A DNA stretch of 53,622 nt from Nitrosopumilus sp. GTDB lineage: Archaea; Thermoproteota; Nitrososphaeria; Nitrososphaerales; Nitrosopumilaceae. This document shows, one piece after another, positions 2,971-48,860 of the stretch (position 1 is the first letter of the stretch; each line of letters opens with the position of its first letter). The translations under genes were made by a program, and so were the position numbers. The stretch lies in contig CBDBCE010000006.1 of NCBI GenBank assembly GCA_965203315.1, forward strand, positions 1 through 53,622, written 5' to 3'. Under the pieces are notes generated by a model. The model had not been told where the DNA came from. It did not search any database and was given only the letters and a program-made list of their open reading frames with translations.

Positions 2971-3441
2971 TTATAGACTTAATCGTATTTGGGTGTCTAT
3001 GTGTGTTATACTGTTGGCATCTGTGGTGGCTATGTATCTACGTTGGATTTGGCTTTGTGGTTCATCTTTGATCATTGATCGTACTTCATCATCGTCGGTG
3101 TCAATATCGTGTTGGCAAATTACAATATCTAGTATTGTCTTATTACCTGGTTGTGGATCGTTGTTGTAATTGTTGTTGTGGATCATTTCTACTTCATCAC
3201 TAATAGCTTGTTCATTATCTAGCAGTGATTCTGTGGTCGTGATCGGCTCGTGTACTCTATGATCCAATATGTCATAAGAGGTGTACCTTTGTGGTTTGAT
3301 CTCCATATTGGCTATTCCTTGTCTATAACATTCTTTACAGATATCTAGCGGTCCGCTGGATGTCAATAGAGGTCGTACTGTCTTGTGGCATTCTGTACAT
3401 TGGATCCGATCGGTACCTTTGTACGTGATTGTTTGGTTCAT
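2971..3441 (-). CDS. Hypothetical Zn-finger protein with acidic C-terminus
   Basis: CTECH...CKEC; leaderless promoter at 3438-3469. Confidence 0.7.
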   Translation of the reverse strand: MNQTITYKGTDRIQCTECHKTVRPLLTSSGPLDICKECYRQGIANMEIKPQRYTSYDILDHRVHEPITTTESLLDNEQAISDEVEMIHNNNYNNDPQPGNKTILDIVICQHDIDTDDDEVRSMIKDEPQSQIQRRYIATTDANSITHIDTQIRLSL

Positions 3442-3469
3442 TACTTATTCTGGGATATAATACGTATAT
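3438..3469. repeat. 32-bp direct repeat (copy 1; copy 2 at 5139-5170) covering start codon and promoter
   Basis: TCATTACTTATTCTGGGATATAATACGTATAT identical at both sites. Confidence 0.9.
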
Positions 3470-3528
3470 TAAGCTTCACTTTGTTCAAAAATTACGATGT
3501 TTAGAGTAAAAAAATAGAGAATAAGAGA

Positions 3529-3900: not shown

Positions 3901-4218
3901 TTAAGCAGGGATCATTATACTATATCTGATTTCGGTTGTAAATTGATCAATAGAGGCTGTGTATTGTCTGGTTTCTATTGGATCATTTTCTACTACTTGT
4001 GTGTCTATGTCTGTGTTGGAATTTACTAGATAGATTTCTAGCGTGTATTCTCTAAACCCATATATCAGATCTTCATCAATAGTGATTAGATCTTCATGGA
4101 TGTCTTCATGGATGTTGGCTTCGATTTGGCTATTGAGATCTTCAATAGTCTTGTGTGTGTCTGTGTAATTGATTAAGCCTTGTGTGTTTACGGCTATGTA
4201 TCGTGTGTTTGTATTCAT
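3901..4218 (-). CDS. Acidic hypothetical protein
   Basis: ORF track; cassette context. Confidence 0.65.
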   Translation of the reverse strand: MNTNTRYIAVNTQGLINYTDTHKTIEDLNSQIEANIHEDIHEDLITIDEDLIYGFREYTLEIYLVNSNTDIDTQVVENDPIETRQYTASIDQFTTEIRYSIMIPA

Positions 4219-4251
4219 TACCTTGTATGGATATAGTATGTTATTATATGT

Positions 4252-4288
4252 TTCATCTGGGGTCGAAAATTACGATAATTAGGATATA
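4252..4288. repeat. 37-bp direct repeat (copy 1; copy 2 at 4854-4890) containing the operator
   Basis: TTCATCTGGGGTCGAAAATTACGATAATTAGGATATA identical at both sites. Confidence 0.9.
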
Positions 4289-4312
4289 GTCTGACCAAAT
4301 AGAAAAAAGGGA

Positions 4313-4582
4313 TCAAATATGATAATAACAGTTGTCTGTTATTTCATATAGATCTATGTGTGTGTGTTGTGGGGTGGATGTACCGTGGGCCAATATACGT
4401 ATGGTTTCATCAGATGCGATCCGTGTACACTTCCATATAGCATGGATCGTACCGTACATGTCTGTGGATCTCATGATATCTACGGCCTGACTAAATGTCT
4501 GTACGTATTCCTTGTATTCTGTGTCTGGGCATTCTATCTTATACATTCTATCTAGTAGTGGATATTGTGTATATATTAACAT
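4313..4582 (-). CDS. Hypothetical protein
   Basis: ORF track; oligo-T terminator after the stop; (GCAAG)4 upstream. Confidence 0.6.
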   Translation of the reverse strand: MLIYTQYPLLDRMYKIECPDTEYKEYVQTFSQAVDIMRSTDMYGTIHAIWKCTRIASDETIRILAHGTSTPQHTHIDLYEITDNCYYHI

Positions 4583-4716
4583 AATGTATACCTAAAACGT
4601 TGCATAATTAGTCTTGCCTTGCCTTGCCTTGCGTGGCGGTGTGGATTTAACGATTTTTCGATTTACCGATTTTGATTTTTGAACCTTGATTCTGGGTACG
4701 TCATATTACTTACAAG

Positions 4717-4744
4717 TACGGTACTGGGACGGTACAGTACCGTA
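4717..4744. repeat. 10-bp perfect inverted repeat TACGGTACTG-N8-CAGTACCGTA
   Basis: Read directly, within a ~400-bp non-coding stretch. Confidence 0.8.
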
Positions 4745-4986
4745 ATTCAGTATGAATAGTATGGATATAATACATACTATATACACTATGGATATTAGAC
4801 GTATTATGAATAGTATGTATAATATAGATACTATCTAGTCTGGGTGGTGATGCTTCATCTGGGGTCGAAAATTACGATAATTAGGATATATAGTCATGAA
4901 CATAATAATTTTCCGAGTGCATAGTATCACAATTTGGTGTCATCTGTTCTGCCAGAGGCAAATTCCGTCTCTGACCACGATGTTGG

Positions 4987-5142
4987 CTATTGGTTGATGC
5001 CGATTATGCTGTCAACATCTGAGATGCATGCTGGACATATGGGATGAGTCTTTCCTTGGATATGTCTGGCTGTCATCTTTCGCGCTTCATGGGTGTCACC
5101 ACATGAGGCACATTTCACATATGCTGGGAATGTGTATGTCAT
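4987..5142 (-). CDS. 51-aa Zn-finger micro-protein
   Basis: Manual translation MTYTFPAYVKCASCGDTHEARKMTARHIQGKTHPICPACISDVDSIIGINQ; TTTATATA box ~24 nt upstream. Confidence 0.7.
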   Translation of the reverse strand: MTYTFPAYVKCASCGDTHEARKMTARHIQGKTHPICPACISDVDSIIGINQ

Positions 5143-5326
5143 TACTTATTCTGGGATATAATACGTATATAAACCTTTGTTGGTTGCGATCTTGAGTGGA
5201 TGAGTTGCCGAAATTCCGAAGTCCGTAAGATCCAAACATATATAAGGGGGTAGCCGAGAGCAATGTCCCTCACAAAAAATTTAAAAAAAATGGCAACTTT
5301 TATTACCTAGTATATATCTATTACGG

Positions 5327-6262
5327 TTGTTGAAATCTTATTCCGTCTATCCTAGACTACAACATGAAATTGGACGGTTTGCTATTACTCCTAATGATTC
5401 TAATGATGAACATATTGCTGGATTGCCTTTTTGGTGTAATAATCAGGATGTTAATGTAGATGGTCAGGCTTGTTGTCTTACCCACAGGGTTGGACTCCCC
5501 CAAATTAGAGATACCAAAATGCCCCTAGCGGACTTTCAGTTGGAGTTTTGTTCTTCGATATTTGACCTGGCACGGAAAAAGAGTTCTGATCTGCCCCTTT
5601 TGATACATTTGTTAAAGGGACGCCAAATGGGGTTCACAGAGATAGTTATACGATTAATACAGTATTTCTCATTTAATCGCTATGCAGGAAAGAAAATAGG
5701 AATCATGACTGGTACCAATGGGGATTTGGCTAAAAAAGACCTTCGCAGATTATATGACTTGTACAAGCCGATTAAGGAAACTTTGATGGGTCCATTGTCC
5801 AAGAATATGATTCACCTCAAAAATGGGACTTCTGTCGAAGCATTCGCCTCAGATGAAGAGGCAATGACAGGGGACACAAAGTATGCTTGTATATTTCTAG
5901 ACGAGGCGGCTAAATGGGACATGAAGGACGATACAGCCATATTCAACAGTATTATGCCCATTGTCCGAACCAATGCCTCTGATTTGTTTCTGGTTTCTAC
6001 GCCAAAGGGTCCAGAAAAGATGTTTTGGAAGATTTGGAAGTACGACAAGCAATTCCACAAGTTCAAGTACCCGATTACCCGTGCTTTGGGGTCCATACAT
6101 ACGAATGAGACTCTGCAAGAGATCCTGGATAATTCAGTTGAAGACATACAGCAAGAGTACTTTTGTGAGTTTGCAGGGGCTAAAGACAGGGTATTTCACT
6201 TTGACGAAAACGATATTGTCAAGCGTAAAGCCATTTCATTGGTGAAATCATGCGATTTGTAG
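5327..6262 (+). CDS. terL: Terminase large subunit, ATPase domain (stand-alone)
   Basis: Walker A-like KGRQMGFTE, Walker B CIFLDEAA, coupling motif VSTP, C-terminal QEYFCEF. Confidence 0.9.
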   Translation: MLKSYSVYPRLQHEIGRFAITPNDSNDEHIAGLPFWCNNQDVNVDGQACCLTHRVGLPQIRDTKMPLADFQLEFCSSIFDLARKKSSDLPLLIHLLKGRQMGFTEIVIRLIQYFSFNRYAGKKIGIMTGTNGDLAKKDLRRLYDLYKPIKETLMGPLSKNMIHLKNGTSVEAFASDEEAMTGDTKYACIFLDEAAKWDMKDDTAIFNSIMPIVRTNASDLFLVSTPKGPEKMFWKIWKYDKQFHKFKYPITRALGSIHTNETLQEILDNSVEDIQQEYFCEFAGAKDRVFHFDENDIVKRKAISLVKSCDL

Positions 6263-14884: not shown

Positions 14885-14928
14885 GCAATTACTTGTTATA
14901 AGGAAGGTAATATATAGATAGAGTTGGA

Positions 14929-26182: not shown

Positions 26183-26321
26183 AAATGGAAACCCCTTCAA
26201 AACAAGAGACAACTCAAGACGATCCAATCGGCAGTAGAAGAGAGGTGTCTAGTACAACAAATGATGAGATATCTGTAAGGTCTAGAAGAGATTAAATAAT
26301 GTATCATTTTATGACCTGTGA

Positions 26322-26420
26322 GGGGGCTAGACTCAGCTCGAAAGACTGACGGGTTTCACGCAAGTTTGTCCCAATTTGAATACCCTCGAGGGTGAGGCTT
26401 AATAGCCGAGCCGTTTAGTT
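26322..26420 (+). ncRNA. Candidate structured small RNA (multi-branch)
   Basis: Closing stem GGCTAGAC/GTTTAGTT, GAAA-tetraloop hairpin, CAAGTT/AATTTG, ACCC/GGGT and GGCT/AGCC hairpins; TTAAATA box ~25 nt upstream. Confidence 0.55.
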
Positions 26421-26449: not shown

Positions 26450-27034
26450 ATGGCAGTTACTGATAATGACATTCGATACCACTATGTAGGGGGTAGCGGA
26501 GCTGGTAGTACCACTAGAGGCGATTCAAGTCTAGGTGGAGCTGTCGATACTGCAAACACAATCTCAGATACTAAACATTATCTATTCAAAGAAGTTACAT
26601 CTCATCAGGCTGAACAGGGTATAAATGATTATCGTTGTATAGCAGTTCATAACGCCAACGCAGATGGAGACGCTCTAACCAATCCTGTGGTGTATTTCTC
26701 TAATGATCAATCTGGCAATCCATCTGAAGCACGAATGGAATTTGCCATTGATCCACAACCTACAGCGGCAAGTCTCACCACTACAAGAGTCGTAACCAGT
26801 CCAACTCAATCAGGCAATACACAAGGAATCTTTGGTAGTGTAGCACCTGCTTCAGTTACAGGATTAACCTGGAACGGATCAGCACCAATCTCTTATGCAA
26901 CAGGCATATCTCTGGCAACCTCATTACCTGCAACACATTACAAAGCAATTTGGCTTAGACGAGTTATTGGTACAGAAGCACCACAAACTGATACCGTATC
27001 TGTTACACTTAATGTCGAGGGCGCAGCGAATTGA
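26450..27034 (+). CDS. Virion structural protein (SLGG...LF..V...DYRC family)
   Basis: SSLGGAV, LFKEVT, INDYRCIAVHN, YKAIWLRR motifs recalled from a recurrent viral structural family; own promoter. Confidence 0.6.
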   Translation: MAVTDNDIRYHYVGGSGAGSTTRGDSSLGGAVDTANTISDTKHYLFKEVTSHQAEQGINDYRCIAVHNANADGDALTNPVVYFSNDQSGNPSEARMEFAIDPQPTAASLTTTRVVTSPTQSGNTQGIFGSVAPASVTGLTWNGSAPISYATGISLATSLPATHYKAIWLRRVIGTEAPQTDTVSVTLNVEGAAN

Positions 27035-27332: not shown

Positions 27333-30300
27333 ATGCCTCAAAGAGATACTAGTTCTGACATAACCTATCCGACAGCTATACAAAGACCCAGAGGATTAAC
27401 ACGTGCTTGGAAAAAGTGGTTTATAGCAGAGAATGTTCGTGGTGGCACAAACAAGATTCATTGTTTATCAGATACTAAAACCAACGGAGTAAACGATAGA
27501 TTCGATCAACTAGATGTCAATCTAGGTGATAATCCTCTTGGACTGGCGTACTATCATGGCGAGTTTCTTGTGTCAGATGTGAGTAATGCCATCACTAGAT
27601 ACAGGCTAAAGCACGATAGCACGAGTTGGAGCAACTTTGATGCACGTGCAAGGTTTGGCTTTGACGTACAGGGTGGCAAGGCATTTATGATGAAAAATAG
27701 AATCAACCGATTCTTTACAGCAGATAATGTCGATATATCTATTGGTGGCACGTTCCAGGACTTTGTATTCAATGGCGAAGACATTGTAGTAGGTACGTCA
27801 GGAACAAATGAAAAGTTTTACAGAGCTACAAGTGCAGGTCTTGAGCCACCACAAACAGGAGTCAATCTCTTTTCTGATACTGAAAACAATAACGAGACCA
27901 TTGTTGCAATGTACTTTGATGGTGTTGTACTATGGACAATCATTCGTACAGGTGATGAAGATCAGCAAATTAATTGGCGATACGACAGATACGGATACAA
28001 GTTTCCCAATGAGCGTACCACTATAACCAAGACTCAATCTGAACAACGACTATCAGTAATGAATGGCATGACTGTAAAAGGCATGACCAAACTACATGGC
28101 AAGTTCTATCTTTTAGTGAATAATCTTACAAAGTGGTCGCTCATGGCATATAATGAAAATTGGACTAGAGACACTTCTGCCGACTTTGACATTGCCAATT
28201 TATCAGCCACAGGATTAACTACTGATGGCACATACCTATACACGATACAATCCAATATAGTACGAGCCTATCACCCTATCACAAAACAAGCCGTGCCAGA
28301 AAGAGACATACCAGTACGAACCCACGACATGCCAAATCCAACTGCTCTAGACTTTAAGAATGGCACACTCTGGTTAGGATTTCCTAATGGCACTAACAAG
28401 GTGTCTCTAAGAGACGCCACCCTAATAGAATATGATTATGTAGATGACGCTGACGCCAATACCAGTTTTACTCTGACCCGACCCTCTGCTACTGTACATT
28501 TTGAAGGCATGACTCACGATAGAACAAAGTTTGTAAACTATTTACCAGGAACGGTTGATGAGTTTGTAGCCTATCAACGCTATGGCGGAAGCCCACTTGG
28601 ACAGATTCGACTACAAGACCCACCCAGCGAAATATCAGGATATACCACACGGGGGGTTTACTTTGATGGCTCTGATTATTGGATTGCTAAAACCAACACA
28701 ACTGATGACAAACTATTACGCTTTACCCCTGATGTAACGGACAATCCCTATGCGGTTAAAGATCTCAAAACCCGTGATACATTATACCAACGAGTCTATG
28801 AGACGAGTGCGATACGACCAAAGATTGAACAAATCGATCTAGGTGGGGAATCCTCTATTAATTCGATAGCGATAGACGGTGATTACATCTATGTGAATAA
28901 CGATGAATCGCACCACATCAATCGAGTACACACAGGTACACATAGCAAAGATCTTCCATTCTTTACCTATGCTCAAACCTACGAGTTTACGGGACTGACT
29001 TTCCACGATGGCGAATTATACTGTACAGATAGACTGAATAACAGAGTAGTCGTCTATACTCCAAGAGAGACAGGAAACGATGGAGCAGATATACTAGCAC
29101 CGAATAGAGTTCACAATCTAACCAACATTTCAGGGGAAGCCCGTGCCATAACCTACAAAGACGGGGTATTCGCTGTAATAGACAGCAGATCAGGAGCTCG
29201 TTCCAACATTGTATTCTATGACAAGAATTTCAATTATCTTGGCAGTCGTCTAACCCCCATAAGAAGTACAGATCGTTCATGGACGTCTCAAGTACAAGCC
29301 ATAGCGTCAGATGGACGATATTGGTATTGTGGGGATTATCAAACAAACCGCATTCTAGTAGAGACAGGCACGTTTACAGATGGCATAGACAATCAAGAGG
29401 CATTACAGTTTAGTATAGATCCACCCGTAGCAGGTTATCGTATCGAAGGACTAGACATACAAGGCGGGACACTCTGGGTGGCATGGAACTCGACAACAAG
29501 TTCAACTACTCACTATGCTACTTCTCATAAATTGTATGGTTTTGGGAGTACAATAACAGGTACAGATGAGAAAAAACTAGAGACCAGAACGGCATTCGCA
29601 AAAAGAGATAACTCTGATAGTGCGACAGGTTTGGCTAATGATGGCACACATCTTTTCACAGTCAGTTCACATGATAGAGCTTTAATCGAGTATGATACTG
29701 ATGGTACTAATCGTAGGCAGGTTGGTAGTTTTACTGAATCATTTGGAATCGTAACAGGTGTGGCTAGAACAACCAACAAGTTTTATATCTTTTTGTATAA
29801 AGACCTAGCTCCTGCAACTAGCAGTATAGTACAAATGACTCATGCAGGGTCAGTCCTATCCACAAGACTCACAATAGGAACTAATACTCCCAATCCAGTA
29901 GGCGGTACATTTCACAATGGTAAATTGTATGTACTGGATAATTCTAACAATCAGATTGATGTGTATAATGTAACTGCTGGAAGTACAGCTGGAACTAATG
30001 ACTCTCTTGCATACAGTACATCATACAGTTTACCCAATAAATCATGGGGTTCTGTATGTAATGATGGAATACATCTTTGGTGTTTAAACACAACCGATAA
30101 TGAGATGTATGCTCTAGATTTATCAGGCAATCATATATCTGCCTTAGACTTTGACATTGATGACCCACAAACAGGGTATGGTTGGACGGGTTCAACAATA
30201 ATTGGTAATAAAATGTACATAATGCAACAAAAGAATGATGTACAAAACGCTTTAGTAGATACATGGCAACAACCTACAATTCGTGAACCTAAGGGAACTA

Positions 30301-33300
30301 AAATCATTGATACTACGGGGGAGTATAACAGTCTAGCTCATCATAATGGCAAGTTGTACTCCATTGATGGTCGTGCAGGGCATGTAAGTATTGATGAGTT
30401 TGAACTTGATGGTAGTAATCAAAGTAATCCAACAAGTGTTAGTTTACCTGCGGGTGTTACAGGTGCATACGCAGGTATGTGTGTTAATAGTTCAGGTAAT
30501 TTTGTAATTGTTACTGCAACTAATCGTGCATTTGAAATTAATGCGAGTGGCGATCTAGTAAGTCAACACACGCTAATCGGTACAAGTACTACAGCTGAAG
30601 GCATTACTTTACTTGGCGATAAGTATTATGTAGTACAATTTGATAATCGTGGAAATAAACGCATTCGTGTTTATAATTCGAGTTTTCAACATCAATCAAG
30701 TGAAGATACATTAATCACAGCCGCTGCCAAAGCAATTACTAATGATGGCACATATCTTTATCTTCGTGATGGTGGTAAACTCATTGCGATTGATCCAACC
30801 ACCAAAGCAAGAGTTCCAACACAGGACGTAGCTGTTACCAAACACGCACCTGCTCTAGATGGATTTGAACTAGAAGGCATGGATTATGCCAACAATACTT
30901 TCTATCTGTTATGGGCTGAAAGTGCTACGGGCAGGCGCATAGATCAATACCCAATGTCCACACAAACCCCACTCCTTGTAGATCAAGACAAAATACAAGG
31001 CGTAGCCAAACATGACGGCAAGGTATGGGTGCTAGACAATACCGACAACGTACTCCAACCCTACGATGATGACACCGATGACGAAACCAATCCCAGCGGG
31101 ACTCCAATTCAACTATTCGAGCATACTTGGATTTCAGTTACCAATGATGAAAACTATTTCTATATTCTAGCCAACGACAATATCATTTATTGTTATAATG
31201 AATCGGGGCGGGTTAGTGCCAGAGATATTAGTATCAAGGATGTGTCCTTGCCTAGCGGATATTCGTGGCAACAAATAATGATTTGGGACGATGTAATGTA
31301 CCTACACGCCACCACGACAGCAAGTAATACAGCCGATTACGTTTATCCTCTACAATACAAAGAGCATGATTATCTGGCAATACCTAGATATCCAGGCGAG
31401 TTTAGTTATGTCGCTTCTAGTCCTGTGTCGGTAAACATGGGTGCGACTTCTATTCCCCAACCTGACGCCTTTGCATGGGACGGCACACATTGGTATGTAA
31501 TGGAAGATTCCAACAGAGAGCTATTCAAGTTTAATGATTCCTTTGCTCTACAAACCCCTCGCAATCAACGGGTAGGCGGTACATCAAGTCAAGACATCTA
31601 TGGTATTGTATGGACAGGTACTCGATTGGTTTACTTTTCGACACGGGGTTGGGGTACAATCAATACAAGCACATTGGTGTCTTCTAATCCCATTGGGGAC
31701 AATGCTCCCATATTGATTAATCCCAGCAATGCCATAACTTTCTATGAAGACGTGTTTTACGTTCCACAAAGACGTGGCGTGTACATGTTTTCCTTTGATG
31801 GCACGACTGCGAGTTATCTTGGTCGATTCGATACTGTCGCTTCTGATCCACTTGGTATTGCCGCCTATGAAGGTGTACTGTACATTGTTGGTGAGAATAA
31901 ACACGTCTATGTCTATGACATTGGCACAAAGAGACGAAAGCCTGAAAGAGAGTTTGACGCAACAGGTCCAGATGAAATCCATGAAGCATTAATCAGAGAC
32001 CATCGACTATACTTACTAGGACGAGATACCTCTGACAACAAGGCACTACGATACTATGATCTACGACAACGAGACTTTTCTCGCATAGACGTTGGGCAAG
32101 ATATACGGGACGGAGCAATCACCACAAACAACAACTATTTCTTTGTTGTGTCAGATCATACCAATAACATCTACAAGGTATCGATTCATTCAGGTGCAGT
32201 TGAACTAACCATCGGTCTTTGGAATACAGGTAGCACGGTAAACCAAGACCCCGTTGGGGCTACACTTCATGGCAACGAGATAGCCGTATTGGACAAAGAC
32301 AGTAAGCACATATTCCTGTATAACGACCATCAGGCGACACAATCACTACAAGTCCAACACATAAAACGACTACCACCTACAATAACGGACTTGCGAGGGA
32401 TAACTTGGTTCAATGGATTATATTGGGTCGTGGCAGGACGCAACATCTATCTGTTTGGCGATACTCCACATACTGTATTACCTGCGGCACACATCACATT
32501 AACTGCTGACGCCAACGACTTTGACTGTATAACCCATGATGATAACTATGTGTATGTGTTGATGTCATCTGAAGATGTCCATGTGTTTGACCGCAACGGC
32601 ACTCGAATACATCACAGAGACGTCCAACTAGACGAGTATTCTGGCGATAATGATCTTCGCAATCTATCGGGTATAACTCACACCAATGGGCTTTTGTATA
32701 TTCTGGACGGGGGCACAAACAACAACGCTAGAGTATTTCCCATTAAACTACGCAAAGACAATGAATGGCTTGTAGAACAAAGAGAGATACTTGGTAATAG
32801 TTTTGGCAATGCTAGAACAGTTGGATCACATAGTACCATACCCCTAGCTCTAGCAAATACTAGTCCTCTTGATGTGGCTGCACAGTTTACCAATGTTGCA
32901 GAAAATTATGGTAGTTTGTATGTTCTGGATAGAGTAAAGCGACACATCTATGTTTATGATTTAGACGCAGGGTGGTGGGACGAAGTCAAAAGTTTCGCTC
33001 TAAACTCTGATACCAGAGAGCCTGAATCCATAACAATCAACGATGGTAAACTGTATGTTCTGAACAATACTGCCACAAGTCCGTCAGTTCACGTCTATAA
33101 CATATCTCTGACAGGATTACACTCTGGCTTTGCTCGTAGGTTATCTCTGGACGACATTGCATTAACTCAAGATTCCACAGGCTATGATCATATTGCGTGG
33201 TTTAACGATATACTCCTAGTGCGTGGTAAGGGTGGAATGACATACGGCTTTGTTAATGGACAACACGGCACTACAATATCCAACATAGCAGGACGATTCG

Positions 33301-36300
33301 GATTTGATGATTACGACATGTATCATTACGATTCGGGCAATGTAGTCAAGAGACAACTAGCTTTAGAATCGCATACGGGACCCACAGTATTCTCTGGACT
33401 GGATAATCCACGAGGTTTATCTGTGTTTAATGACGAGTTAATTGCAATATCTGATAAAACTCCAGGCAAGGAGGTTATCTCTAGAACTCCTGTATTTACC
33501 GCAACTCAGGCTAGAACATATCCACCAAATCCAACACCAGAGACAGTAATCGATAATATCGTTCTTCCTCCAGGTGCGAGTATTCAGGGGGCAACTTCTG
33601 ATGACACTACCATGTGGCTACTCGATAATAACTCCAAGCGAGTATATCAATATACAATAGACAATTCAGGATCAACTCCTGCTATATCGACTGTCAATTC
33701 AGGCTCATTCCTAGTAAATACAACTGAAAACGTACGGGGTATAACCAAAGGACCTGATAGATTTTACATTCTGGCAGATACTCGAATCCTAGAATATACG
33801 CTATCGGGACTAGAGATACCTTTCTCAACATCTCTGACAATCCCAACAACTCGCAGACTAGGAATCACTTATTATAATAACAAACTATGGGTTGCAGTCA
33901 TAGACACAGGTACAAACTCTCACTATGTTCATGCCTATGATACAAGCACCAGAGAATCTACAACAGGTGGTTTTAGAGTATCGGATGCCAATATTGGTGG
34001 TATTGCTACTGATGATAATCGCTTTTGGATGTTCTATGGCGATGGTTGGAGTAGGTATGATATATCAGATACATCTGTCGGGAATCAAACTAATTGGAGT
34101 ACGTCAGGTATTGATAATGTCTATCGTGAGGCGGGTTGTATGTATTCCAATGATCGTATATATGGTGTACTCCAACACAATACAAACAATACACTCAGGA
34201 TGTTACCCCTCAAAGTATCTGACTCTGCCAAAGCAGTCGATTCAATCACTCTAGATACTGCCAATTCAGACCCAGAAGGCTTGGCGTCAGATGATACCTA
34301 TCTGTATGTGGCAGATGGTAATGGAAGGCAACTATACGTTTATCCTGGCGTGGGAGCTCAAGATCATGCCAAGATAGATGCTAGAGGCATAGACTTTACA
34401 GAAGAGACTTCTCTTGGTTCGCCACACGGATTACATGTGTATAACGATAAACTCTACGTGCTGAATGATTACGATCCAAACAATCCAACCACCAACGCCA
34501 ACAAGATATTTGCGTGGCTTACGGGGATATTTCCAAGTAAAGAGTTGGTTATATCTTATGCCATGCCATATCTACGAAAAGCACTAAACGTATCATATCT
34601 GATTAAGAGACCACAGTATTGGCACTATCAACGTCCACCTCATACAGATATTACTCATCGACTTGGTGCGATGACAATCGTTGGTAATTCATTATATATC
34701 ATTACAAGTGGTGGCACAGGAACAGGTCTTACTCTGAAAAAATACAACAAGGACACTTTCGCAGCTGAACGATTTACGGCAGGAGGAGTTTCAACTGAAA
34801 ATGCTTTCATTCCAAAGCCCTCTGGTGCAAGTGGAGTAAACGTGCAAGACATGACATGGGACGGCTCTAATCTATTTCTTGCAAGTAATAATGATGATCG
34901 TCTATGGAAAATATCCAATGAGCCAACGTATGATTCTGCTAATAGTCGTGAAGTGTTAGGTAGAGTCGATATGTCAGTTACAGGTAGTCGTACATCGTGG
35001 GAAGGAATGGCATGGAATGGCGAACATATTATAGTCGTTGATACCGAAGCGGGTGAAAAGTTTGAAAGACGTAATACCTCTCTGGGTGCTATTGATTCGC
35101 AAACAATCAATTTCGGTTCAGGTGCGTTTAGTAGTCTAGCCAGTGCAGATCACGTCAATGGCATGGACTTTGACGAACAAAACTATTACTGTGTAGTATC
35201 CAACAACATCACAAACAGAAGCAAACTCGTGGTAATAAACAGAGAGCTAAACAAACTAGAGTTTGAAACCGACTTGCCCACAGCAATAACTCACCCTGTT
35301 GGAATAGTCAAGGACGGAGACCGTGTTATCATAGCTAATTGGGTAACTGCGGGTTCAAACAACGGACTCTATGTTTTCAGATACGTAACTCCTGTGATTC
35401 GAGGTTTACCAATATCCTTTGAAATTCTTAGCTCTTTGATCTCGCCAAAGATGTTAAACATTCTATACAGTATATCTCGAATCCCTGCAAAGAAGCCTCT
35501 ATCCATGATATACGATATACCATTCTATCGTATCTCACCAAAGGCGTTAAACATCGTATATGACATCAACGAGTATCTTGTGCCAAAAATACTAAACATC
35601 TCTTATAAAATTTCAAGACGTGCCACAAAGCCATTAAACATCATATACGAGATATTTAGAATCCCTGCTAGTAAACGATTACGAATACGATACAGAATAT
35701 TACGAATCCCTGCAAAGAAGCCATTACAAATACTATACAGTATAGCAGAAAATCTAATACCAAAGCCAATAAACATATCCTACAAAATTAACGAGTTCAG
35801 AAAGAGCAAGAGTCTAGATGTAATATATCACATGCTTAATTTCGATCTCCGATTGGGTAATAGATTCGATGTTACATATACCGATGATATTACACAGGTT
35901 CGCTCACTCTCTAGGTTTAGAGATCAATGGGCGATACTTGGTAATAGTGAGCAACAGAGACCATCAGATAGAAACCCTGTTGATTATGACGCTGTCCACT
36001 TTGTAAACGAAGACGGCACAACAGGGGAAACAGAAAATGTGGATTGGGTGGAAGTTGATTCCAACAAGGCAGGACTTCACATAGAAGGCAATGAAATGTA
36101 TGTGCTAAATGATGATGGTGAGGTAAACCTGTTCAGGTATAACGGCACTAGATGGATATTTGATGGCGAGTTGTCATATCGTGAACCTGAACAAAGACGT
36201 ACCGACTGTGTGGATATTCTAATTGTACCACCTGGCGGGGAAGACGGCACAGACGGACTTGTAGCAATAGTAAACGAACAAGACACTCCAGAAACCAAGT

Positions 36301-37319
36301 TCTTTACTCGTGTTGGTTCAGAATTACAATGGTTCGGCGATGCCTATATCTATATGGCAGGTACTGATCCTCGTGGACTTACTGCCGATGAATCCTATTT
36401 CTATATGGTAGATAATACAGGTAAACAAGTTATCGCATATAACAGACGTAATGGTGAAGGTGATGATGGTGATGAGTATCGCAATCCACAAGGCTATAAC
36501 ATAGAGGACGACTTTACCAGAGAGAATTTTCCACTGGACACAAACAATCAGAGACCTCGAGGAATCTATGTCTTTGGCAAGGTTGTATGGGTGCTAGAGA
36601 ATAATCGCAGAACAGGGGGTGCTGTTGCAGAACGAATGTTATACGCATACAATACTGAACTATCTTGGTATCGACAAGTATTGGATATTGTATATTCGAT
36701 ACCCACCTATACTATCAAAAAGCCACTAAACATTCTATATCGTGTAATCGGTATTCCTAAAAAGAAACTAGACATATCGTATCGTATCACAGGGTTCAAC
36801 ATAGATCCAAAGGCTCTTGTTATATCCTATGCGATTCCATTCTTTAGACGAGTTTGGGACTTGGGCATATCATACGACATTGCACATTATACCAATACTC
36901 ACCCACTACAGATTCTCTATCGCATAGCATATACTTTCATAGATCCAAAGCCGTTAAACATATCCTACAATATTGCCGAGTATAGAGCTCAAGGTGATCT
37001 GCTCATAGAGTACATGATTGACTATTTCAGACGGGATTGGCAGTTGCCTATATCGTTTGGTATTCTGGGACTTAGACCCAGAAAACAACTAGGCATTATG
37101 TACGAGATATTTAGAATCCCTGCAAAGAAATCACTCGATATACGTTATCGCATTGGCGCCATAGTACGGGGCAAATCACTATCCATACAATACAAGATAG
37201 ACAACATTGAGATCTTTAACTCTCTCAAGATAATATACAGTATTCAAAAGATACTGCCCAAACAGATTATCGACTTTAAATATATTAGAGACAAGGTGGT
37301 GAAATTCTTTAATGAATGA
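27333..37319 (+). CDS. Giant (3328 aa) multi-beta-propeller adhesin-like protein with C-terminal KPLNIxYxI repeats
   Basis: Dozens of G(L/I)x.DG..L(Y/W)V blades (e.g. NSDPEGLASDDTYLYVAD); ~25 short K(P/A/S)LxIxYxI repeats. Confidence 0.8.
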   Translation: MPQRDTSSDITYPTAIQRPRGLTRAWKKWFIAENVRGGTNKIHCLSDTKTNGVNDRFDQLDVNLGDNPLGLAYYHGEFLVSDVSNAITRYRLKHDSTSWSNFDARARFGFDVQGGKAFMMKNRINRFFTADNVDISIGGTFQDFVFNGEDIVVGTSGTNEKFYRATSAGLEPPQTGVNLFSDTENNNETIVAMYFDGVVLWTIIRTGDEDQQINWRYDRYGYKFPNERTTITKTQSEQRLSVMNGMTVKGMTKLHGKFYLLVNNLTKWSLMAYNENWTRDTSADFDIANLSATGLTTDGTYLYTIQSNIVRAYHPITKQAVPERDIPVRTHDMPNPTALDFKNGTLWLGFPNGTNKVSLRDATLIEYDYVDDADANTSFTLTRPSATVHFEGMTHDRTKFVNYLPGTVDEFVAYQRYGGSPLGQIRLQDPPSEISGYTTRGVYFDGSDYWIAKTNTTDDKLLRFTPDVTDNPYAVKDLKTRDTLYQRVYETSAIRPKIEQIDLGGESSINSIAIDGDYIYVNNDESHHINRVHTGTHSKDLPFFTYAQTYEFTGLTFHDGELYCTDRLNNRVVVYTPRETGNDGADILAPNRVHNLTNISGEARAITYKDGVFAVIDSRSGARSNIVFYDKNFNYLGSRLTPIRSTDRSWTSQVQAIASDGRYWYCGDYQTNRILVETGTFTDGIDNQEALQFSIDPPVAGYRIEGLDIQGGTLWVAWNSTTSSTTHYATSHKLYGFGSTITGTDEKKLETRTAFAKRDNSDSATGLANDGTHLFTVSSHDRALIEYDTDGTNRRQVGSFTESFGIVTGVARTTNKFYIFLYKDLAPATSSIVQMTHAGSVLSTRLTIGTNTPNPVGGTFHNGKLYVLDNSNNQIDVYNVTAGSTAGTNDSLAYSTSYSLPNKSWGSVCNDGIHLWCLNTTDNEMYALDLSGNHISALDFDIDDPQTGYGWTGSTIIGNKMYIMQQKNDVQNALVDTWQQPTIREPKGTKIIDTTGEYNSLAHHNGKLYSIDGRAGHVSIDEFELDGSNQSNPTSVSLPAGVTGAYAGMCVNSSGNFVIVTATNRAFEINASGDLVSQHTLIGTSTTAEGITLLGDKYYVVQFDNRGNKRIRVYNSSFQHQSSEDTLITAAAKAITNDGTYLYLRDGGKLIAIDPTTKARVPTQDVAVTKHAPALDGFELEGMDYANNTFYLLWAESATGRRIDQYPMSTQTPLLVDQDKIQGVAKHDGKVWVLDNTDNVLQPYDDDTDDETNPSGTPIQLFEHTWISVTNDENYFYILANDNIIYCYNESGRVSARDISIKDVSLPSGYSWQQIMIWDDVMYLHATTTASNTADYVYPLQYKEHDYLAIPRYPGEFSYVASSPVSVNMGATSIPQPDAFAWDGTHWYVMEDSNRELFKFNDSFALQTPRNQRVGGTSSQDIYGIVWTGTRLVYFSTRGWGTINTSTLVSSNPIGDNAPILINPSNAITFYEDVFYVPQRRGVYMFSFDGTTASYLGRFDTVASDPLGIAAYEGVLYIVGENKHVYVYDIGTKRRKPEREFDATGPDEIHEALIRDHRLYLLGRDTSDNKALRYYDLRQRDFSRIDVGQDIRDGAITTNNNYFFVVSDHTNNIYKVSIHSGAVELTIGLWNTGSTVNQDPVGATLHGNEIAVLDKDSKHIFLYNDHQATQSLQVQHIKRLPPTITDLRGITWFNGLYWVVAGRNIYLFGDTPHTVLPAAHITLTADANDFDCITHDDNYVYVLMSSEDVHVFDRNGTRIHHRDVQLDEYSGDNDLRNLSGITHTNGLLYILDGGTNNNARVFPIKLRKDNEWLVEQREILGNSFGNARTVGSHSTIPLALANTSPLDVAAQFTNVAENYGSLYVLDRVKRHIYVYDLDAGWWDEVKSFALNSDTREPESITINDGKLYVLNNTATSPSVHVYNISLTGLHSGFARRLSLDDIALTQDSTGYDHIAWFNDILLVRGKGGMTYGFVNGQHGTTISNIAGRFGFDDYDMYHYDSGNVVKRQLALESHTGPTVFSGLDNPRGLSVFNDELIAISDKTPGKEVISRTPVFTATQARTYPPNPTPETVIDNIVLPPGASIQGATSDDTTMWLLDNNSKRVYQYTIDNSGSTPAISTVNSGSFLVNTTENVRGITKGPDRFYILADTRILEYTLSGLEIPFSTSLTIPTTRRLGITYYNNKLWVAVIDTGTNSHYVHAYDTSTRESTTGGFRVSDANIGGIATDDNRFWMFYGDGWSRYDISDTSVGNQTNWSTSGIDNVYREAGCMYSNDRIYGVLQHNTNNTLRMLPLKVSDSAKAVDSITLDTANSDPEGLASDDTYLYVADGNGRQLYVYPGVGAQDHAKIDARGIDFTEETSLGSPHGLHVYNDKLYVLNDYDPNNPTTNANKIFAWLTGIFPSKELVISYAMPYLRKALNVSYLIKRPQYWHYQRPPHTDITHRLGAMTIVGNSLYIITSGGTGTGLTLKKYNKDTFAAERFTAGGVSTENAFIPKPSGASGVNVQDMTWDGSNLFLASNNDDRLWKISNEPTYDSANSREVLGRVDMSVTGSRTSWEGMAWNGEHIIVVDTEAGEKFERRNTSLGAIDSQTINFGSGAFSSLASADHVNGMDFDEQNYYCVVSNNITNRSKLVVINRELNKLEFETDLPTAITHPVGIVKDGDRVIIANWVTAGSNNGLYVFRYVTPVIRGLPISFEILSSLISPKMLNILYSISRIPAKKPLSMIYDIPFYRISPKALNIVYDINEYLVPKILNISYKISRRATKPLNIIYEIFRIPASKRLRIRYRILRIPAKKPLQILYSIAENLIPKPINISYKINEFRKSKSLDVIYHMLNFDLRLGNRFDVTYTDDITQVRSLSRFRDQWAILGNSEQQRPSDRNPVDYDAVHFVNEDGTTGETENVDWVEVDSNKAGLHIEGNEMYVLNDDGEVNLFRYNGTRWIFDGELSYREPEQRRTDCVDILIVPPGGEDGTDGLVAIVNEQDTPETKFFTRVGSELQWFGDAYIYMAGTDPRGLTADESYFYMVDNTGKQVIAYNRRNGEGDDGDEYRNPQGYNIEDDFTRENFPLDTNNQRPRGIYVFGKVVWVLENNRRTGGAVAERMLYAYNTELSWYRQVLDIVYSIPTYTIKKPLNILYRVIGIPKKKLDISYRITGFNIDPKALVISYAIPFFRRVWDLGISYDIAHYTNTHPLQILYRIAYTFIDPKPLNISYNIAEYRAQGDLLIEYMIDYFRRDWQLPISFGILGLRPRKQLGIMYEIFRIPAKKSLDIRYRIGAIVRGKSLSIQYKIDNIEIFNSLKIIYSIQKILPKQIIDFKYIRDKVVKFFNE

Positions 37320-38730: not shown

Positions 38731-38770
38731 TTACTTGTTATAAGGGGGGCTACTTTATAAGTCTTAGTGA

Positions 38771-38992
38771 ATGGTCAAAAAAAATGTCTTCAATGTCAAA
38801 CTTTCTCTAGTGAGTATGCTCAAAGTCTTCATATCTACCACATTGGGACCCTTTGTGGGTGCGAAAATAATGTTGGATTCTTCTTTTGCAGATGCATTCA
38901 TAGTAGCAATATTCTCGGGATTAATCATGTCTGGACTTCAGTTCGCCAATGCCTTGAATCGATATGAGAGGGATTTAGCCAATGGACGTTAA
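38771..38992 (+). CDS. Small two-TM membrane protein (holin-like)
   Basis: Two hydrophobic segments and a charged C-terminus. Confidence 0.5.
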   Translation: MVKKNVFNVKLSLVSMLKVFISTTLGPFVGAKIMLDSSFADAFIVAIFSGLIMSGLQFANALNRYERDLANGR

Positions 38993-39111
38993 AAAGATTT
39001 TAAGAGTTTTGGGCGACTTTGCCCCCTTTAGTTGTGATCTAGATGAAAAGTGTCGTTATATCAAAGAAGTAGATGAAGATTAGTTGTTATTAAGAACCAT
39101 GTTCTAGAGTA

Positions 39112-39177
39112 GTTGGTTTTACCAGACCGAAGTATTTTCCCATGCTTCGGTGTGAGGCGTTATGACCCTCACACCAT
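39112..39177 (+). ncRNA. Candidate structured small RNA 1
   Basis: ACCGAAGTA/TGCTTCGGT and GTGAGG/CCTCAC hairpins, TGGT/ACCA closing, ends in ACCA; TTATTAA box upstream. Confidence 0.5.
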
Positions 39178-39209
39178 TTATATTATAATATGAATCAGCA
39201 ATAACATAA

Positions 39210-39291
39210 GCGGAGTTTGTCGGTAGCTCGTCAAAAAACCGTCTCTAGCAAACTGCGAAGTGGACACAGCCCCTCGCTCTGTCCACTCCGT
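39210..39291 (+). ncRNA. Candidate structured small RNA 2
   Basis: GCGGAGT/ACTCCGT closing stem, AGTTTG/CAAACT, CGGT/ACCG and GTGGACA..AGC/GCT..TGTCCAC stems; TATA element upstream. Confidence 0.5.
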
Positions 39292-39319
39292 TTATATAAA
39301 ACGAATTGTGTAGACCAGT

Positions 39320-39433
39320 ATGGAACTCGATACTGTAAAAACAAAATGGACTGACAGAGATGCTGACATAGTGGTTCAATATCTGATGGACAAGAAATTA
39401 GGATTGGAATCAGAAGACGAACTCTCTCAATAA
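39320..39433 (+). CDS. 37-aa micro-protein
   Basis: MELDTVKTKWTDRDADIVVQYLMDKKLGLESEDELSQ; TTTATATA box at 39291. Confidence 0.55.
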   Translation: MELDTVKTKWTDRDADIVVQYLMDKKLGLESEDELSQ

Positions 39434-39466
39434 CCTTCATTTATATTATGATTCTCTCTAGGTATA

Positions 39467-39553
39467 ATGGGCGTTGAAAACTACGGTTTTCTCCATACGG
39501 TGCTAGAGGGGACACTTGAAACCATATCCACTCCCTTTAGTATCCTTTATTAA
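39467..39553 (+). ncRNA. Candidate structured small RNA 3 (also an open 28-codon frame)
   Basis: GAAAAC-TACG-GTTTTC (cUACGg tetraloop) and a 13-bp G-U-rich stem 39499-39511/39532-39544; TATA at ~39440. Confidence 0.45.
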
Positions 39554-39574
39554 TGACTAAAATGTAAAACATAC

Positions 39575-40354
39575 ATGCTTAGTAAGTCGATGATGATCAC
39601 ATTGACACCAATGGTTACGGCTATAGCAGGAATGATTGCTCAATCTAGTCCACAATTTGCCTGGATCACTCCAGAGATGATTTTCTCACTTCTAGCCATG
39701 TTTGGGATTAGTGCTGGTGTCGGGGCAAAAGTAAAGAATGATAAAAGAAAACAAGAGATCGAATTAAAGAAAGTCGAGGTCGAAAAAGAAAAGGTAGCGA
39801 TTGAACGAGTTGAAAAGATAGGGGGAGTTACTGTTCACGACACCAAAGTATATTCAAAACCACCAAAACCAGAACACTACACTATGGATATGACACACAT
39901 GAGACCAGAGGAATTTGCCAAACTAACAGAATTACAAAAGGACGACTTTGTAAATCGAGGTGGCGTTGTAAATCCATTTTTGAAAGAAACCGAAGGCATA
40001 CAATGGAATAATGCAGGTTGGTTCGATACTAACTTAAACCAGTATGAAGGGAAGGGAGCATTCCACCCGTATGGCAGAAAATACCTATGGATTAGGTGTA
40101 AAGGTGCAAAGGACGGCATTACAGTCAGAATGAGTAAACTACATGATGATACAGGTGAGTTCAAGAAACTATTACAAATAGATCAATCTGGAATACATGA
40201 TGAAGACAACGACATAGAAACCACTCGACTAGAGATGTTTGGACTAGACAGAAAGACCCCCATGAAGAGAGGCAAGTATAGAATGATAATAACCGCCATG
40301 ACACGTGGCACATCATATACGCAGAGTGCGACTACGAGTTTTGAGATAATTTGA
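39575..40354 (+). CDS. Membrane protein: two N-terminal TM helices, coiled coil, C-terminal beta-sandwich
   Basis: Hydrophobic N-terminus; GKYRMIITA...SFEII Ig-like end; possible lysis/egress role (inference). Confidence 0.6.
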   Translation: MLSKSMMITLTPMVTAIAGMIAQSSPQFAWITPEMIFSLLAMFGISAGVGAKVKNDKRKQEIELKKVEVEKEKVAIERVEKIGGVTVHDTKVYSKPPKPEHYTMDMTHMRPEEFAKLTELQKDDFVNRGGVVNPFLKETEGIQWNNAGWFDTNLNQYEGKGAFHPYGRKYLWIRCKGAKDGITVRMSKLHDDTGEFKKLLQIDQSGIHDEDNDIETTRLEMFGLDRKTPMKRGKYRMIITAMTRGTSYTQSATTSFEII

Positions 40355-46563: not shown

Positions 46564-46819
46564 GCACCTCGAATGATTTTTGATAGGTATCTAAGAGCAT
46601 TTTGTATCCCTCTGGACTCCAGGTTTTGAGCATGAACACCATACGAACCAGATAAGACATCGTAACTGCCGTCTCAGCTGGATTGCTTTCCATCATTAGT
46701 TTGATTTCGTTAAACTCTGGCGTTTCAGTATCCCCTGATCGTTCCACCATGCCAACTAGGTGTTCGATATTTTCTATAACATAGTTAAACATTGGCATAC
46801 CACCCTGATTTCGGTTCAT
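46547..46819 (-). CDS. Hypothetical protein
   Basis: ORF track; true start probably MFNYV, overlapping the MCM stop. Confidence 0.5.
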   Translation of the reverse strand: MNRNQGGMPMFNYVIENIEHLVGMVERSGDTETPEFNEIKLMMESNPAETAVTMSYLVRMVFMLKTWSPEGYKMLLDTYQKSFEVLESGR

Positions 46820-48860
46820 AGATTATACTGGCTTGTCTCATTTTATCTATCATACCATGAGCATCTGTACTGTTAAACTGTTCGCTATTGACCAAGTTCT
46901 CAATCAACTCTCTTTCATTGACCATGCCTTTGTCGTTCTTGAGTTTCTTGAAAATATCTTGGAATAGTTGCATTTTGGATACCTGACTCTTGGGCATTCC
47001 GTGTAGTACTCCTACATCGACTTGTCCTGTCGTAACGTCCACTCCTGAAGTCTTGAGCATCTCGTCCATGATGTAGATGGCTCGTTCAGCGTCCGACTCG
47101 TCAGCTGTATCTTTGAGAAGCATTTTGGCACGAGCAACTGTGAGACGGGTTATGCCTTCGAGTTGTCGGACAGTAACAGTCATGCCTTCCTCTGTTTTTC
47201 TCATCTTTTGATAATACTCTTTTATTTTGGCTCTGGCTTGTTCAGATAGAACGGGATGCATACTCTTGGCTACTCGAATATACTTGGCAAAGTCTTCATT
47301 GGTGAGTAGGTCGGGTTTTGAATCCTGTTGTGTGTACATGGATAATACATGATCTGCTATAACATCGTCCATGTCATTGTCAGCTACATCTTTGAGAACA
47401 AAGATCAAGTCGAATCGAGTAAGTAATGGTATGGGTATAGACGGCACATTCTCGGTTAGATTCTTGAATGGATCATACTTTCCAAAAGCAGGGTTAGCTA
47501 TTGCTATTACAGAGCAACGAGTGTTCAAAGTACTATTGATTCCTGCTTTAGATATTGAGACGCTTTGTTGCTCCATGACTTCGTGGAGTGCAGAACGGTC
47601 TCTGGTGTCCATTTTATCGAACTCGTCTATTACGACCAACCCTTGATCTGCAAGAGCTGTAACGCCTGGTGATAGCATGTATCGTCCTGTTATATCGTCC
47701 TTTACGACAGCTGCTGTTAGACCTGCAGCTGATGAACCCTTACCGCTTGTGTAAAAGGCTCTGGGGGCGATTCTCTGAATGGCTTTACCCATCTCGGACT
47801 TTGCTACGCCTGGATCTCCAACCATTAGAATGTTAATGTCGCCACGCACCTTACTTCCGTTGGGCAGAGTCTTGGAATCGCCACCAATCATTGTAAGGAT
47901 TAGTGCCTCTTTGACTAGATCATGTCCATACACATGGGAAGCGAAACTGTTTACTATCTTACGAGTGGCGTTTTCTTTGGCTACCATTTGAGCAAAGCGT
48001 TTACGTTCTGCTATGGTTATTTCTTTCTCAACTTTGTCTTGGGTTAGACGTGTGATATTATTGGCATAGATTCGCTGTCGGTAGGTTTGTATCTCTTTGG
48101 CTAGTTTGAGTTCTTTGGATTTTTCTACTCGCACCATACCTGCAACTTCTACAATATCGCCCAGCCGTGCCTCATCTACCAAGTCATCTGCCACGAACAC
48201 GCTAATGCTCTTGGGGGTTTGACCTTCAGGCAAGTCAGAGGTTAGTTCTTGTAGTTCTATAATCTGGTAATTGATAAAGTCGCATTTTTTAGGCACAAGC
48301 TCTAGTTCCTTAGAGTTACACTTTTCAGCCTCACATAATACAGGCATCTCTATGGAGTAGTCTCTTTTGGCACGGAACTCACGTTCATGTCCTTTTTCAC
48401 AACGATAAACTGCCTTCATCGGAATACTATCAATGGCACTGGAACGAATCATCATAGCCTTGACAGATACAAATTTACCGCTTGTCTCTGCTCCAATGTC
48501 TCTGATACCCCACATACTAGGATAGTTTGATATTCTGGCACGAATTTTGTCTCTAAAGTCTTTGGCATAATCAACGAATCTGGTGTGTAGTGTCTGCCAT
48601 ACTGCCTCGTTTAGAGCGTCCATGAAAAAGTCAGGATCTGCTAGGAAATAGTCCTCTAGGTTTGATTCACCCACAAAGTCATTAAAATCAATCTCTACCC
48701 ATGTGGATTGTCTGGGATACATGTTGTCTATTATGTCGGGATATTTGATTTGACCGCTGGGATTCTTTTTAGACTTTATTGGTCTAAATTGATTCAAGAA
48801 CTGATACAATGTATCTGTCATAGCAGACGGTGTCTTATCGGCTATAATGTCTGGTTTCAT
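46785..48860 (-). CDS. mcm: MCM replicative helicase
   Basis: Zn finger, RGDINILMVGDPGVAKS (Walker A), IDEFDKM (Walker B), LHEVMEQQ, LLTRFDL, TVRQLEG, winged-helix C-terminus. Confidence 0.97.
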   Translation of the reverse strand: MKPDIIADKTPSAMTDTLYQFLNQFRPIKSKKNPSGQIKYPDIIDNMYPRQSTWVEIDFNDFVGESNLEDYFLADPDFFMDALNEAVWQTLHTRFVDYAKDFRDKIRARISNYPSMWGIRDIGAETSGKFVSVKAMMIRSSAIDSIPMKAVYRCEKGHEREFRAKRDYSIEMPVLCEAEKCNSKELELVPKKCDFINYQIIELQELTSDLPEGQTPKSISVFVADDLVDEARLGDIVEVAGMVRVEKSKELKLAKEIQTYRQRIYANNITRLTQDKVEKEITIAERKRFAQMVAKENATRKIVNSFASHVYGHDLVKEALILTMIGGDSKTLPNGSKVRGDINILMVGDPGVAKSEMGKAIQRIAPRAFYTSGKGSSAAGLTAAVVKDDITGRYMLSPGVTALADQGLVVIDEFDKMDTRDRSALHEVMEQQSVSISKAGINSTLNTRCSVIAIANPAFGKYDPFKNLTENVPSIPIPLLTRFDLIFVLKDVADNDMDDVIADHVLSMYTQQDSKPDLLTNEDFAKYIRVAKSMHPVLSEQARAKIKEYYQKMRKTEEGMTVTVRQLEGITRLTVARAKMLLKDTADESDAERAIYIMDEMLKTSGVDVTTGQVDVGVLHGMPKSQVSKMQLFQDIFKKLKNDKGMVNERELIENLVNSEQFNSTDAHGMIDKMRQASIIYEPKSGWYANV

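Follow-up and report, generated by a model that had tools for sequence, protein, structure and literature searches.

Which products arise from a tract of about 470 nt (39084–39553) in which five TATA boxes succeed one another on the plus strand? The tract lies on contig C7 (CBDBCE010000006.1), the whole of which was analyzed (53,622 bp, 40% GC; hereafter the window). C7 is the complete contig of a tailed archaeal virus and forms part of a 2.47-Mb genome of seven contigs. An earlier note on this DNA had described the tract as a tandem array of promoter-fronted candidates for small structured RNAs. The reading favored here, to which a probability of about 0.45 is given, is that of a five-promoter cluster driving tiny units, two of which (designated U1 and U2) would be small stable non-coding RNAs.

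The five boxes (P0 to P4; Table 1) are spaced by 90, 114, 149, and 106 nt. The motif TTTATAT was found on the plus strand of the array at 39177, 39291, and 39440, representing 3 of its 12 matches in the window, and it is not enriched across the window as a whole (12 matches vs. 17.0 ± 4.5 expected). These three sites and the weaker element at 39084–39094 behave like genuine archaeal promoters of this host, in agreement with the earlier note, which had placed a TATA-like element of its own in front of each unit. P4, at 39546, is a fifth element which was absent from that list. Transcription from P0 is expected to start at around 39113–39115, and the 45 nt upstream of this element fold ordinarily (−1.6 kcal/mol). 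Two divergent promoter regions elsewhere in the window (14885–14928 and 38731–38770) were seen to have a 15-nt element in common, TTACTTGTTATAAGG; TTGTTAT-type elements related to it precede the gene at 26450 as well as unit U1, and may represent a class of late-gene promoters.

For promoter geometry the host genome served as its own reference. Starts of TTTATA peak 27–31 nt before the first ATG of long open reading frames (ORFs), with 45 occurrences in those five positions compared with 0–4 at each other position (n = 1545 ORFs), and leaderless mRNAs with a TATA box 27–31 nt upstream are therefore the rule in this host. The same spacing is seen in the array, where the ATGs at 39320, 39467, and 39575 lie 29, 27, and 29 nt from their TATA boxes and open ORFs of 37 aa, 28 codons, and 259 aa, respectively. 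No ATG is found at that position in U1 or U2, and no start codon of any kind lies 27–31 nt downstream of P1. P1 is very likely to be a working promoter, because it is identical to P3 in 14 of 15 bases and because a 10-mer common to the two precedes ORF-opening ATGs elsewhere: the 10-mer has 12 copies in the genome, 8 of which are outside C7, and at 4 of these 8 sites it lies 26–33 nt before the ATG of an ORF of 99–403 codons.

The segments between P0 and P2 were found to fold exceptionally well on the plus strand. With ends predicted from the promoters, U1 (39113–39181) has a folding energy of −27.1 kcal/mol (z −6.09) and U2 (39206–39295) one of −30.2 kcal/mol (z −4.27), values which none of 200 dinucleotide shuffles attained in either case. 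Slightly shifted ends gave similar results (39105–39180, −27.1 kcal/mol, z −5.24; 39205–39295, −30.5 kcal/mol, z −4.53; 0/200 shuffles as good for both). The U1 fold contains 23 pairs and that of U2 contains 30, each including two G-U pairs, and in the closing stem of U2 (~7–9 bp) the 5′ end predicted for this RNA is paired to the opening bases of the P2 TATA box. The units had been described previously as compact multi-stem structures, and folding better than shuffled sequence was seen for U1 and U2 and, with a weaker z of −2.92, for the unit U4 considered below; the stems which had been named, the cUACGg tetraloop, and an ACCA were all present. In a scan of the whole contig in windows of 80 nt, U1 and U2 ranked third and seventh.

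Table 1. Coordinates of the promoter array, of its units and neighboring genes, and of the matches to host CRISPR spacers (positions in the window).
Feature	Position	Strand	Description
73-aa gene	38771..38992	+	Left context; hydrophobic segment
33-aa ORF	38982..39083	+	Probably coding; overlaps end of 73-aa gene; codon score 0.41 vs. coding mean of 0.29
P0	39084..39094	+	Weak TATA-like element; near-copy of element upstream of gene at 26450
U1	39113..39176	+	Candidate non-coding RNA; three abutting hairpins (39115–39128, 39129–39148, 39149–39175)
P1	39177..39189	+	TATA box directly 3′ of last U1 hairpin
U2	39206..39295	+	Candidate non-coding RNA; three-way junction
P2	39291..39300	+	Palindromic TATA box, 29 nt before ATG of 37-aa gene
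37-aa gene	39320..39433	+	Leaderless gene for acidic protein; paralogs; codon score 0.42
P3	39440..39452	+	TATA box, 27 nt before ATG at 39467
U4	39467..39553	+	Leaderless 28-codon ORF or two-hairpin RNA (UACG tetraloop hairpin and 13-bp stem)
P4	39546..39553	+	TATA box, 29 nt before ATG of 259-aa gene; overlaps stop codon of 28-codon ORF
259-aa gene	39575..40354	+	Right context; hydrophobic N-terminal segment, conserved C-terminal domain
Spacer matches	1881–1914, 3078–3112, 3449–3478, 47025–47059, 53262–53297		Matches to spacers of the host CRISPR array

The final hairpins of U1 and U2 run right up to the next TATA box. For the 45 nt preceding P1, P2, and P4, folding energies of −18.0, −16.8, and −12.4 kcal/mol were obtained, and among 145 leaderless promoters of the host an equally stable upstream sequence was found in none for P1, none for P2, and one for P4. 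When all 1859 TTTATA sites of the 2.47-Mb genome were ranked by upstream stability, P1 was placed first and P2 fifth. The hairpin parts have a G+C content of 51–60%, compared with 31–36% in ordinary promoter-upstream sequence. Control spacers were unstructured, whether they were the flanks of chromosomal paralogs of the 37-aa gene (z 0.44, −0.88, and 0.20), a viral spacer at 26325–26418 (z −1.18), or the spacer of a relative (z 0.21). At 26222–26300, 81 nt of a viral spacer were seen to be 84% identical to C1:1319521–1319601 of the host, and no Rfam family was found there.

No coding signal was detected in U1 or U2. Coding potential was assessed by a codon log-odds score for which 35 long ORFs of C7 served as the training set (coding mean 0.29). 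The only ORF in U1 begins with a TTG at 39113 and has 26 aa, and the only one in U2 begins with a TTG at 39217 and has 45 aa. It is very improbable that these frames encode micro-proteins. Both frames are open, and 26 nt separate P0 from the TTG at 39113, which is near the leaderless position. Their codon scores, however, are −0.035 and −0.037, respectively, at the 2nd and 1st percentiles of coding windows; the 45-aa frame extends across P2 into the 37-aa gene; and neither Pfam matches nor paralogs were obtained for them. Leaderless initiation also generally prefers AUG. Because no leaderless ATG is available to them, codon scores are at the 1st–2nd percentile, and folding is exceptional, U1 and U2 are best read as non-coding structured RNAs.

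The transcripts, their ends, and their function are predicted from this layout as follows. Each of the five promoters would drive a transcription unit of very small size. Leaderless mRNAs would begin at P2, P3, and P4 and encode proteins of 37, 28 (this one uncertain), and 259 aa, while P0 would start U1 as a GC-rich non-coding RNA of ~65 nt with its three abutting hairpins, and P1 would start U2, likewise GC-rich and non-coding, as a three-way junction of ~85–90 nt. The last hairpin of each RNA may fix or protect its 3′ end and may at the same time shield the next promoter from read-through, such that small stable RNAs accumulate. It is also proposed that U1 and U2 work through their shape, by binding proteins, and not by antisense pairing, since no significant complementarity to sequences of the virus or the host was seen. 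Antisense targets among the 5′ regions of 74 virus genes did not reach significance (p 0.07, 0.38, and 0.05), and no extended complementarity of the units to viral or host sequence was detected.

Several observations weigh against U1 and U2 being discrete RNAs of the plus strand. Their minus strands also fold well (z −3.58 each), that of U2 being even more stable (−33.4 kcal/mol) than its plus strand, and the plus-strand specificity previously attributed to the folds is clear only for U4. The hairpins before P1 and P2 are pure Watson-Crick inverted repeats lacking G-U pairs; because of these repeats and of the minus-strand folding, a role at the DNA level or on the opposite strand is conceivable. 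No run of five or more T occurs on the plus strand between 38615 and 39977, only three T follow each hairpin, and in Methanococcus three-U tracts were not bound by the termination factor aCPSF1 (PMC8716108); transcription might therefore read through, with the units forming segments of longer RNAs. In the 80-nt scan of the contig, scores equal to those of U1 and U2 are reached by some windows within coding sequence. No homolog of the units was found in any collection searched. Finally, among the listed sequencing runs which contain the stretch, none is recorded as RNA, and the one run guessed to be RNA gave no coverage.

The perfection of the repeats by P1 and P2, and their folding on both strands, would suit repeats that act as DNA, that is, as regulator binding sites or as cruciforms upstream of the TATA boxes of P1, P2, and P4. 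The repeats directly precede the TATA box, in the place normally taken by the recognition element of transcription factor B. This explanation is considered improbable, since the half-sites differ from one another and, with the exception of one half-site at 925, have no copy without mismatch elsewhere in the contig. Moreover, the arms of 8–9 bp are separated by spacers of 9–11 nt and are flanked by further helices which do contain G-U pairs, and the stem before P4, with its four G-U pairs, forms on only one of the strands.

A second explanation is that the folded segments act only on their own transcript, either as 3′-end or insulator hairpins which keep the tiny transcription units apart or as the structured 5′ leader of a 37-aa mRNA started at P1, and would not be independent RNAs with effects elsewhere. 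Every strong hairpin ends directly at a TATA box (P1, P2, and P4), U1 directly follows the 33-aa ORF, read-through is plausible given that no canonical oligo-T terminator was found in the array, and no antisense target stands out among the 74 viral 5′ regions, all of which would suit such a role. U2, however, is flanked by promoters on both sides and has no gene whose transcript it could terminate, and a 114-nt leader would be redundant for the 37-aa gene, for which P2 provides a leaderless start. The design is absent from host promoters (0/145), and the three helices each of U1 and U2 are more elaborate than a terminator needs. Archaeal termination, as far as it is known, relies on U-tracts and not on hairpins (PMC8716108). 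On balance this alternative is regarded as unlikely, though as the most probable of the rivals.

The comparison with terminators can be taken further. The array resembles bacterial intrinsic and archaeal U-tract terminators in having a GC-rich hairpin followed by T-rich sequence, and differs from them in that only three T follow each hairpin. Termination in Methanococcus is reported to need tracts of at least four U together with aCPSF1 (PMC8716108), which speaks against taking the hairpins for standard terminators. A scan for hairpins followed by T-runs likewise found no site at 39176, 39290, or 39545, and the terminator reading was set aside. The missing oligo-T is not decisive against discrete small RNAs either, because only 5 of 40 host tRNA genes have a run of at least four T within 30 nt downstream.

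It might also be supposed that the structures, now without function, arose by chance or were left behind by the decay of foreign DNA richer in GC. The units do occur only once, neither a homolog nor an RNA run containing them was found, and similar scores are reached by some windows of coding sequence. Against this, two of the five most stable hairpin-then-TATA junctions (of 1859) are only 114 nt apart, none of 200 shuffles reached the observed energies, and the layout is in phase with working promoter motifs, which is hard to obtain by chance. This explanation is accordingly held to be quite improbable, and a reading of U1 and U2 as small non-coding RNAs driven by P0 and P1 is preferred. Taken as a whole, the array constitutes a sound set of candidates and not a demonstrated system.

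The search for relatives was extensive. No relative of the units or of the virus was found in a phage collection by blastn, and seven scans of IMG/VR viral contigs, using neighboring and structural proteins as well as alignments of the 37-aa and 259-aa proteins, yielded no relative of the array or of the virus, a single match from these scans being an unrelated one of 40 residues. GTDB genome contigs scanned with the 37-aa alignment gave no relative of the array. A DNA search of 200 genomes of the family returned only matches of 25–49 nt (E 6.6e-5 to 0.0097), mostly to the 37-aa ORF or to AT-rich parts of promoters. Covariance models of U1 and U2 found no homolog in their own genome, in 11 further sources, or in 150 family genomes per model. 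Paralogy among the units themselves was considered as well. Alignment scores against mononucleotide shuffles had p-values of 0.003 for U2 with U4 and 0.023 for U1 with U4; the MAFFT alignment was weak and neither covariance model matched the other units, so that paralogy was rejected and was not used for covariation. No repeats, whether of template/variable or another type, were found linking the array to the rest of the contig. An origin from an attachment site or a tRNA fragment was discarded, no match to host tRNA loci being obtained.

The remaining units of the array are of a different nature. Three structured RNA units had been proposed, of which U1 and U2 are best read as non-coding, while the third, U4, is possibly a leaderless gene for 28 aa. 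On the plus strand U4 folds with −24.9 kcal/mol (2/200 shuffles as good), and here the strand specificity claimed for the folds does apply, the minus strand having a z of −0.26 compared with −2.92. The fold comprises 24 pairs, and its AUG is paired. The 13-bp stem had been credited with five G-U pairs; it has four, and the figure of five holds for the whole unit. The ATG of the 28-codon ORF lies exactly 27 nt after the P3 TATA box, which is why the unit may be a leaderless gene and not an RNA. The codon score of this ORF is 0.076, at the 8th percentile of coding windows and similar to those of the 73-aa and 47-aa genes. U4 is therefore ambiguous between a leaderless 28-aa gene and a strand-specific structured RNA.

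The unit downstream of P2, which had been described as a 37-aa ORF, is a genuine small gene. Its codon usage is coding-like, and tblastn located two chromosomal paralogs on C5 of the host (E 1.9e-10 and 4.3e-9), which in an alignment are 70 and 63% identical to the viral copy. One of them has the C-terminal residues and the stop position of the viral copy, and both are leaderless, with a TATA box of their own 29–30 nt upstream. The stretch containing this ORF (39316–39440) has no RNA structure (z −0.06). The paralogs are located at C5:174071–174171 and C5:162679–162765; one lies ~600 bp from a tRNA-Val gene and the other near a transposase-like ORF, and an integrated element may be present there.

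U1 and U2 were compared with known RNA families and systems. ARAGORN predicted no tRNAs in the window, and none of the 4227 Rfam models matched it at the gathering threshold. When E-values up to 10 were allowed for 38900–39700, three Rfam matches at noise level were returned, none of them to tRNA (best 21.6 bits vs. a threshold of 35.1). The term “tRNA-like” applied in the earlier note is thus not upheld, whereas its observations that canonical D and T loops are lacking and that no known family can be assigned proved correct: there is no cloverleaf, no C box, and no likeness to a CRISPR repeat. The candidates resemble tRNAs and tRNA-like RNAs in their size of 65–90 nt, in the closing stem of U2, and in the ACCA at 39173–39176 at the end of U1; they differ in lacking a cloverleaf and D or T loops, and the CC of the ACCA is paired in the minimum-energy fold. 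Archaeal C/D-box sRNAs have a consensus C box (RUGAUGA) and D box (CUGA) near their two ends. This class was rejected, as no C box, even one shorter by a base, was found on either strand of 39082–39553.

Phages are known to carry small non-coding RNAs with promoters of their own, for example phi29-like packaging RNA and phage regulatory sRNAs. U1 and U2 are similar to these in having their own promoter, no ORF, a compact multi-helix fold, and a place in a tailed-virus genome, and are different in matching no Rfam model, in belonging to an archaeal host with TATA boxes, and in forming several tandem units. Phage morons are self-contained units of promoter, gene, and terminator which are inserted between late genes. 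The array shares with them its independent promoters, its tiny units after a giant tail-fiber-like gene, and its raised GC, but two of its units have no ORF and it has no canonical terminators.

The viral nature of the locus, which had been inferred earlier, was corroborated by the gene content of C7 and by the CRISPR spacers of the host which target it. C7 encodes the N-domain of a T4-type large terminase (Terminase_6N, 5327–6262, E 4.2e-8) and an MCM helicase (46785–48860, E 7.9e-86), together with two DNA methylases, a PD-(D/E)XK nuclease, HNH nucleases, and an 887-aa LAGLIDADG/intein-bearing protein. PHROGs gave no useful name for any of 10 proteins of the structural region, for which reason the virus is taken to be a very divergent tailed virus. 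The host is an ammonia-oxidizing archaeon, as an archaeal AmoA gene and an archaeal 16S rRNA are present in the genome. Its CRISPR array at C1:1011294–1016340, with 70 repeats and 69 spacers, adjoins genes for Cas7, Cas5, Cas3, Cas6b, Cas1, and Cas4 (type I-B-like). Four of the 69 spacers are identical to C7 from end to end, and a fifth agrees with it over 30 of 35 nt (Table 1); none matches inside the promoter array. Most of the spacer matches are concentrated in the region from 1.8 to 5.2 kb of C7, and virus and host were nevertheless co-assembled.

RNA anti-CRISPRs are solitary CRISPR-repeat units carried by phages. U1 and U2 are comparable to them as candidate small viral RNAs with promoters, in a virus facing a host CRISPR system with perfect spacers, and differ from them in having no likeness to the 37-nt repeat of the host. 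Mimicry of the repeat was rejected, the best local alignment to it scoring 16 in the region compared with 22–26 at the best places elsewhere in the contig. It is conceivable, although quite improbable, that U1 and U2, and perhaps U4, form a new class of structured RNAs of archaeal viruses which serve as protein decoys against host defense or RNA machinery. If so, they could help to explain the persistence of the virus in spite of four perfect spacers in its host.

Viruses of ammonia-oxidizing archaea are known almost only from genome sequences. A literature search found no report of non-coding RNAs in such viruses, and in the searchable portion of a recent preprint surveying them neither “non-coding” nor “small RNA” occurred (10.1101/2025.08.23.671958). 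Should U1 and U2 turn out to be transcribed, they would count as the first small-RNA candidates from a virus of an ammonia-oxidizing archaeon, and the hairpin-to-TATA layout would show how an archaeal virus separates tiny transcription units. Sequencing runs from two studies carry identical DNA, three compared runs having contigs which match the window without variants, and on this basis the host appears to be kept as a sequenced culture or enrichment. The prediction is therefore directly testable.

The array had been placed between two membrane-protein genes. The 73-aa and 259-aa genes do flank it, while its immediate neighbor on the left is the 33-aa ORF, which is probably coding. In the 73-aa protein, windows of 19 aa with a Kyte-Doolittle hydropathy of at least 1.6 start at residues 33–44, and no Pfam match was found. 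Further upstream, the ORF at 27333–37319 encodes a single protein of 3328 aa, rich in repeats, in whose C-terminal region short motifs recur periodically; its last 999 aa, used as the query, had no relative in 400 family genomes. Four distant homologs of the 259-aa protein were aligned, and a metagenome scan with this alignment identified seven loci (marine). The promoter array was not found upstream of the homologs at the loci inspected (five of the seven, one of them for ORFs only). At two loci the homolog follows a repeat protein of 1024 aa after an unstructured AT-rich spacer, and at two others there is little or no spacer before it. Relative to the gene for the 259-aa homolog, the 1024-aa repeat protein is placed as the 3328-aa ORF is in C7.

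Other features of the window were noted toward its left end. In front of several genes, namely those at 279, 1661(−), 2159(−), 3441(−), 4218(−), and 11116, a motif of ~9–13 nt with the core TATCGTAAT recurs; it is placed downstream of the TATA box and ahead of the start codon, and may be a shared operator of one temporal class. Upstream of the terminase gene, a non-coding region of 1.1 kb (4200–5330) has short tandem motifs, strongly folding windows (4411–4490, 4701–4780, and 5001–5160), and a direct repeat of 41 bp (4248–4288 and 4850–4890); it may be a replication origin or a packaging or regulatory region. Within it, an element of ~90 bp (4886–4978) has ~45 copies of 81–94% identity scattered over host contigs C1, C5, and C6, and looks like a miniature mobile or repetitive element common to virus and host.

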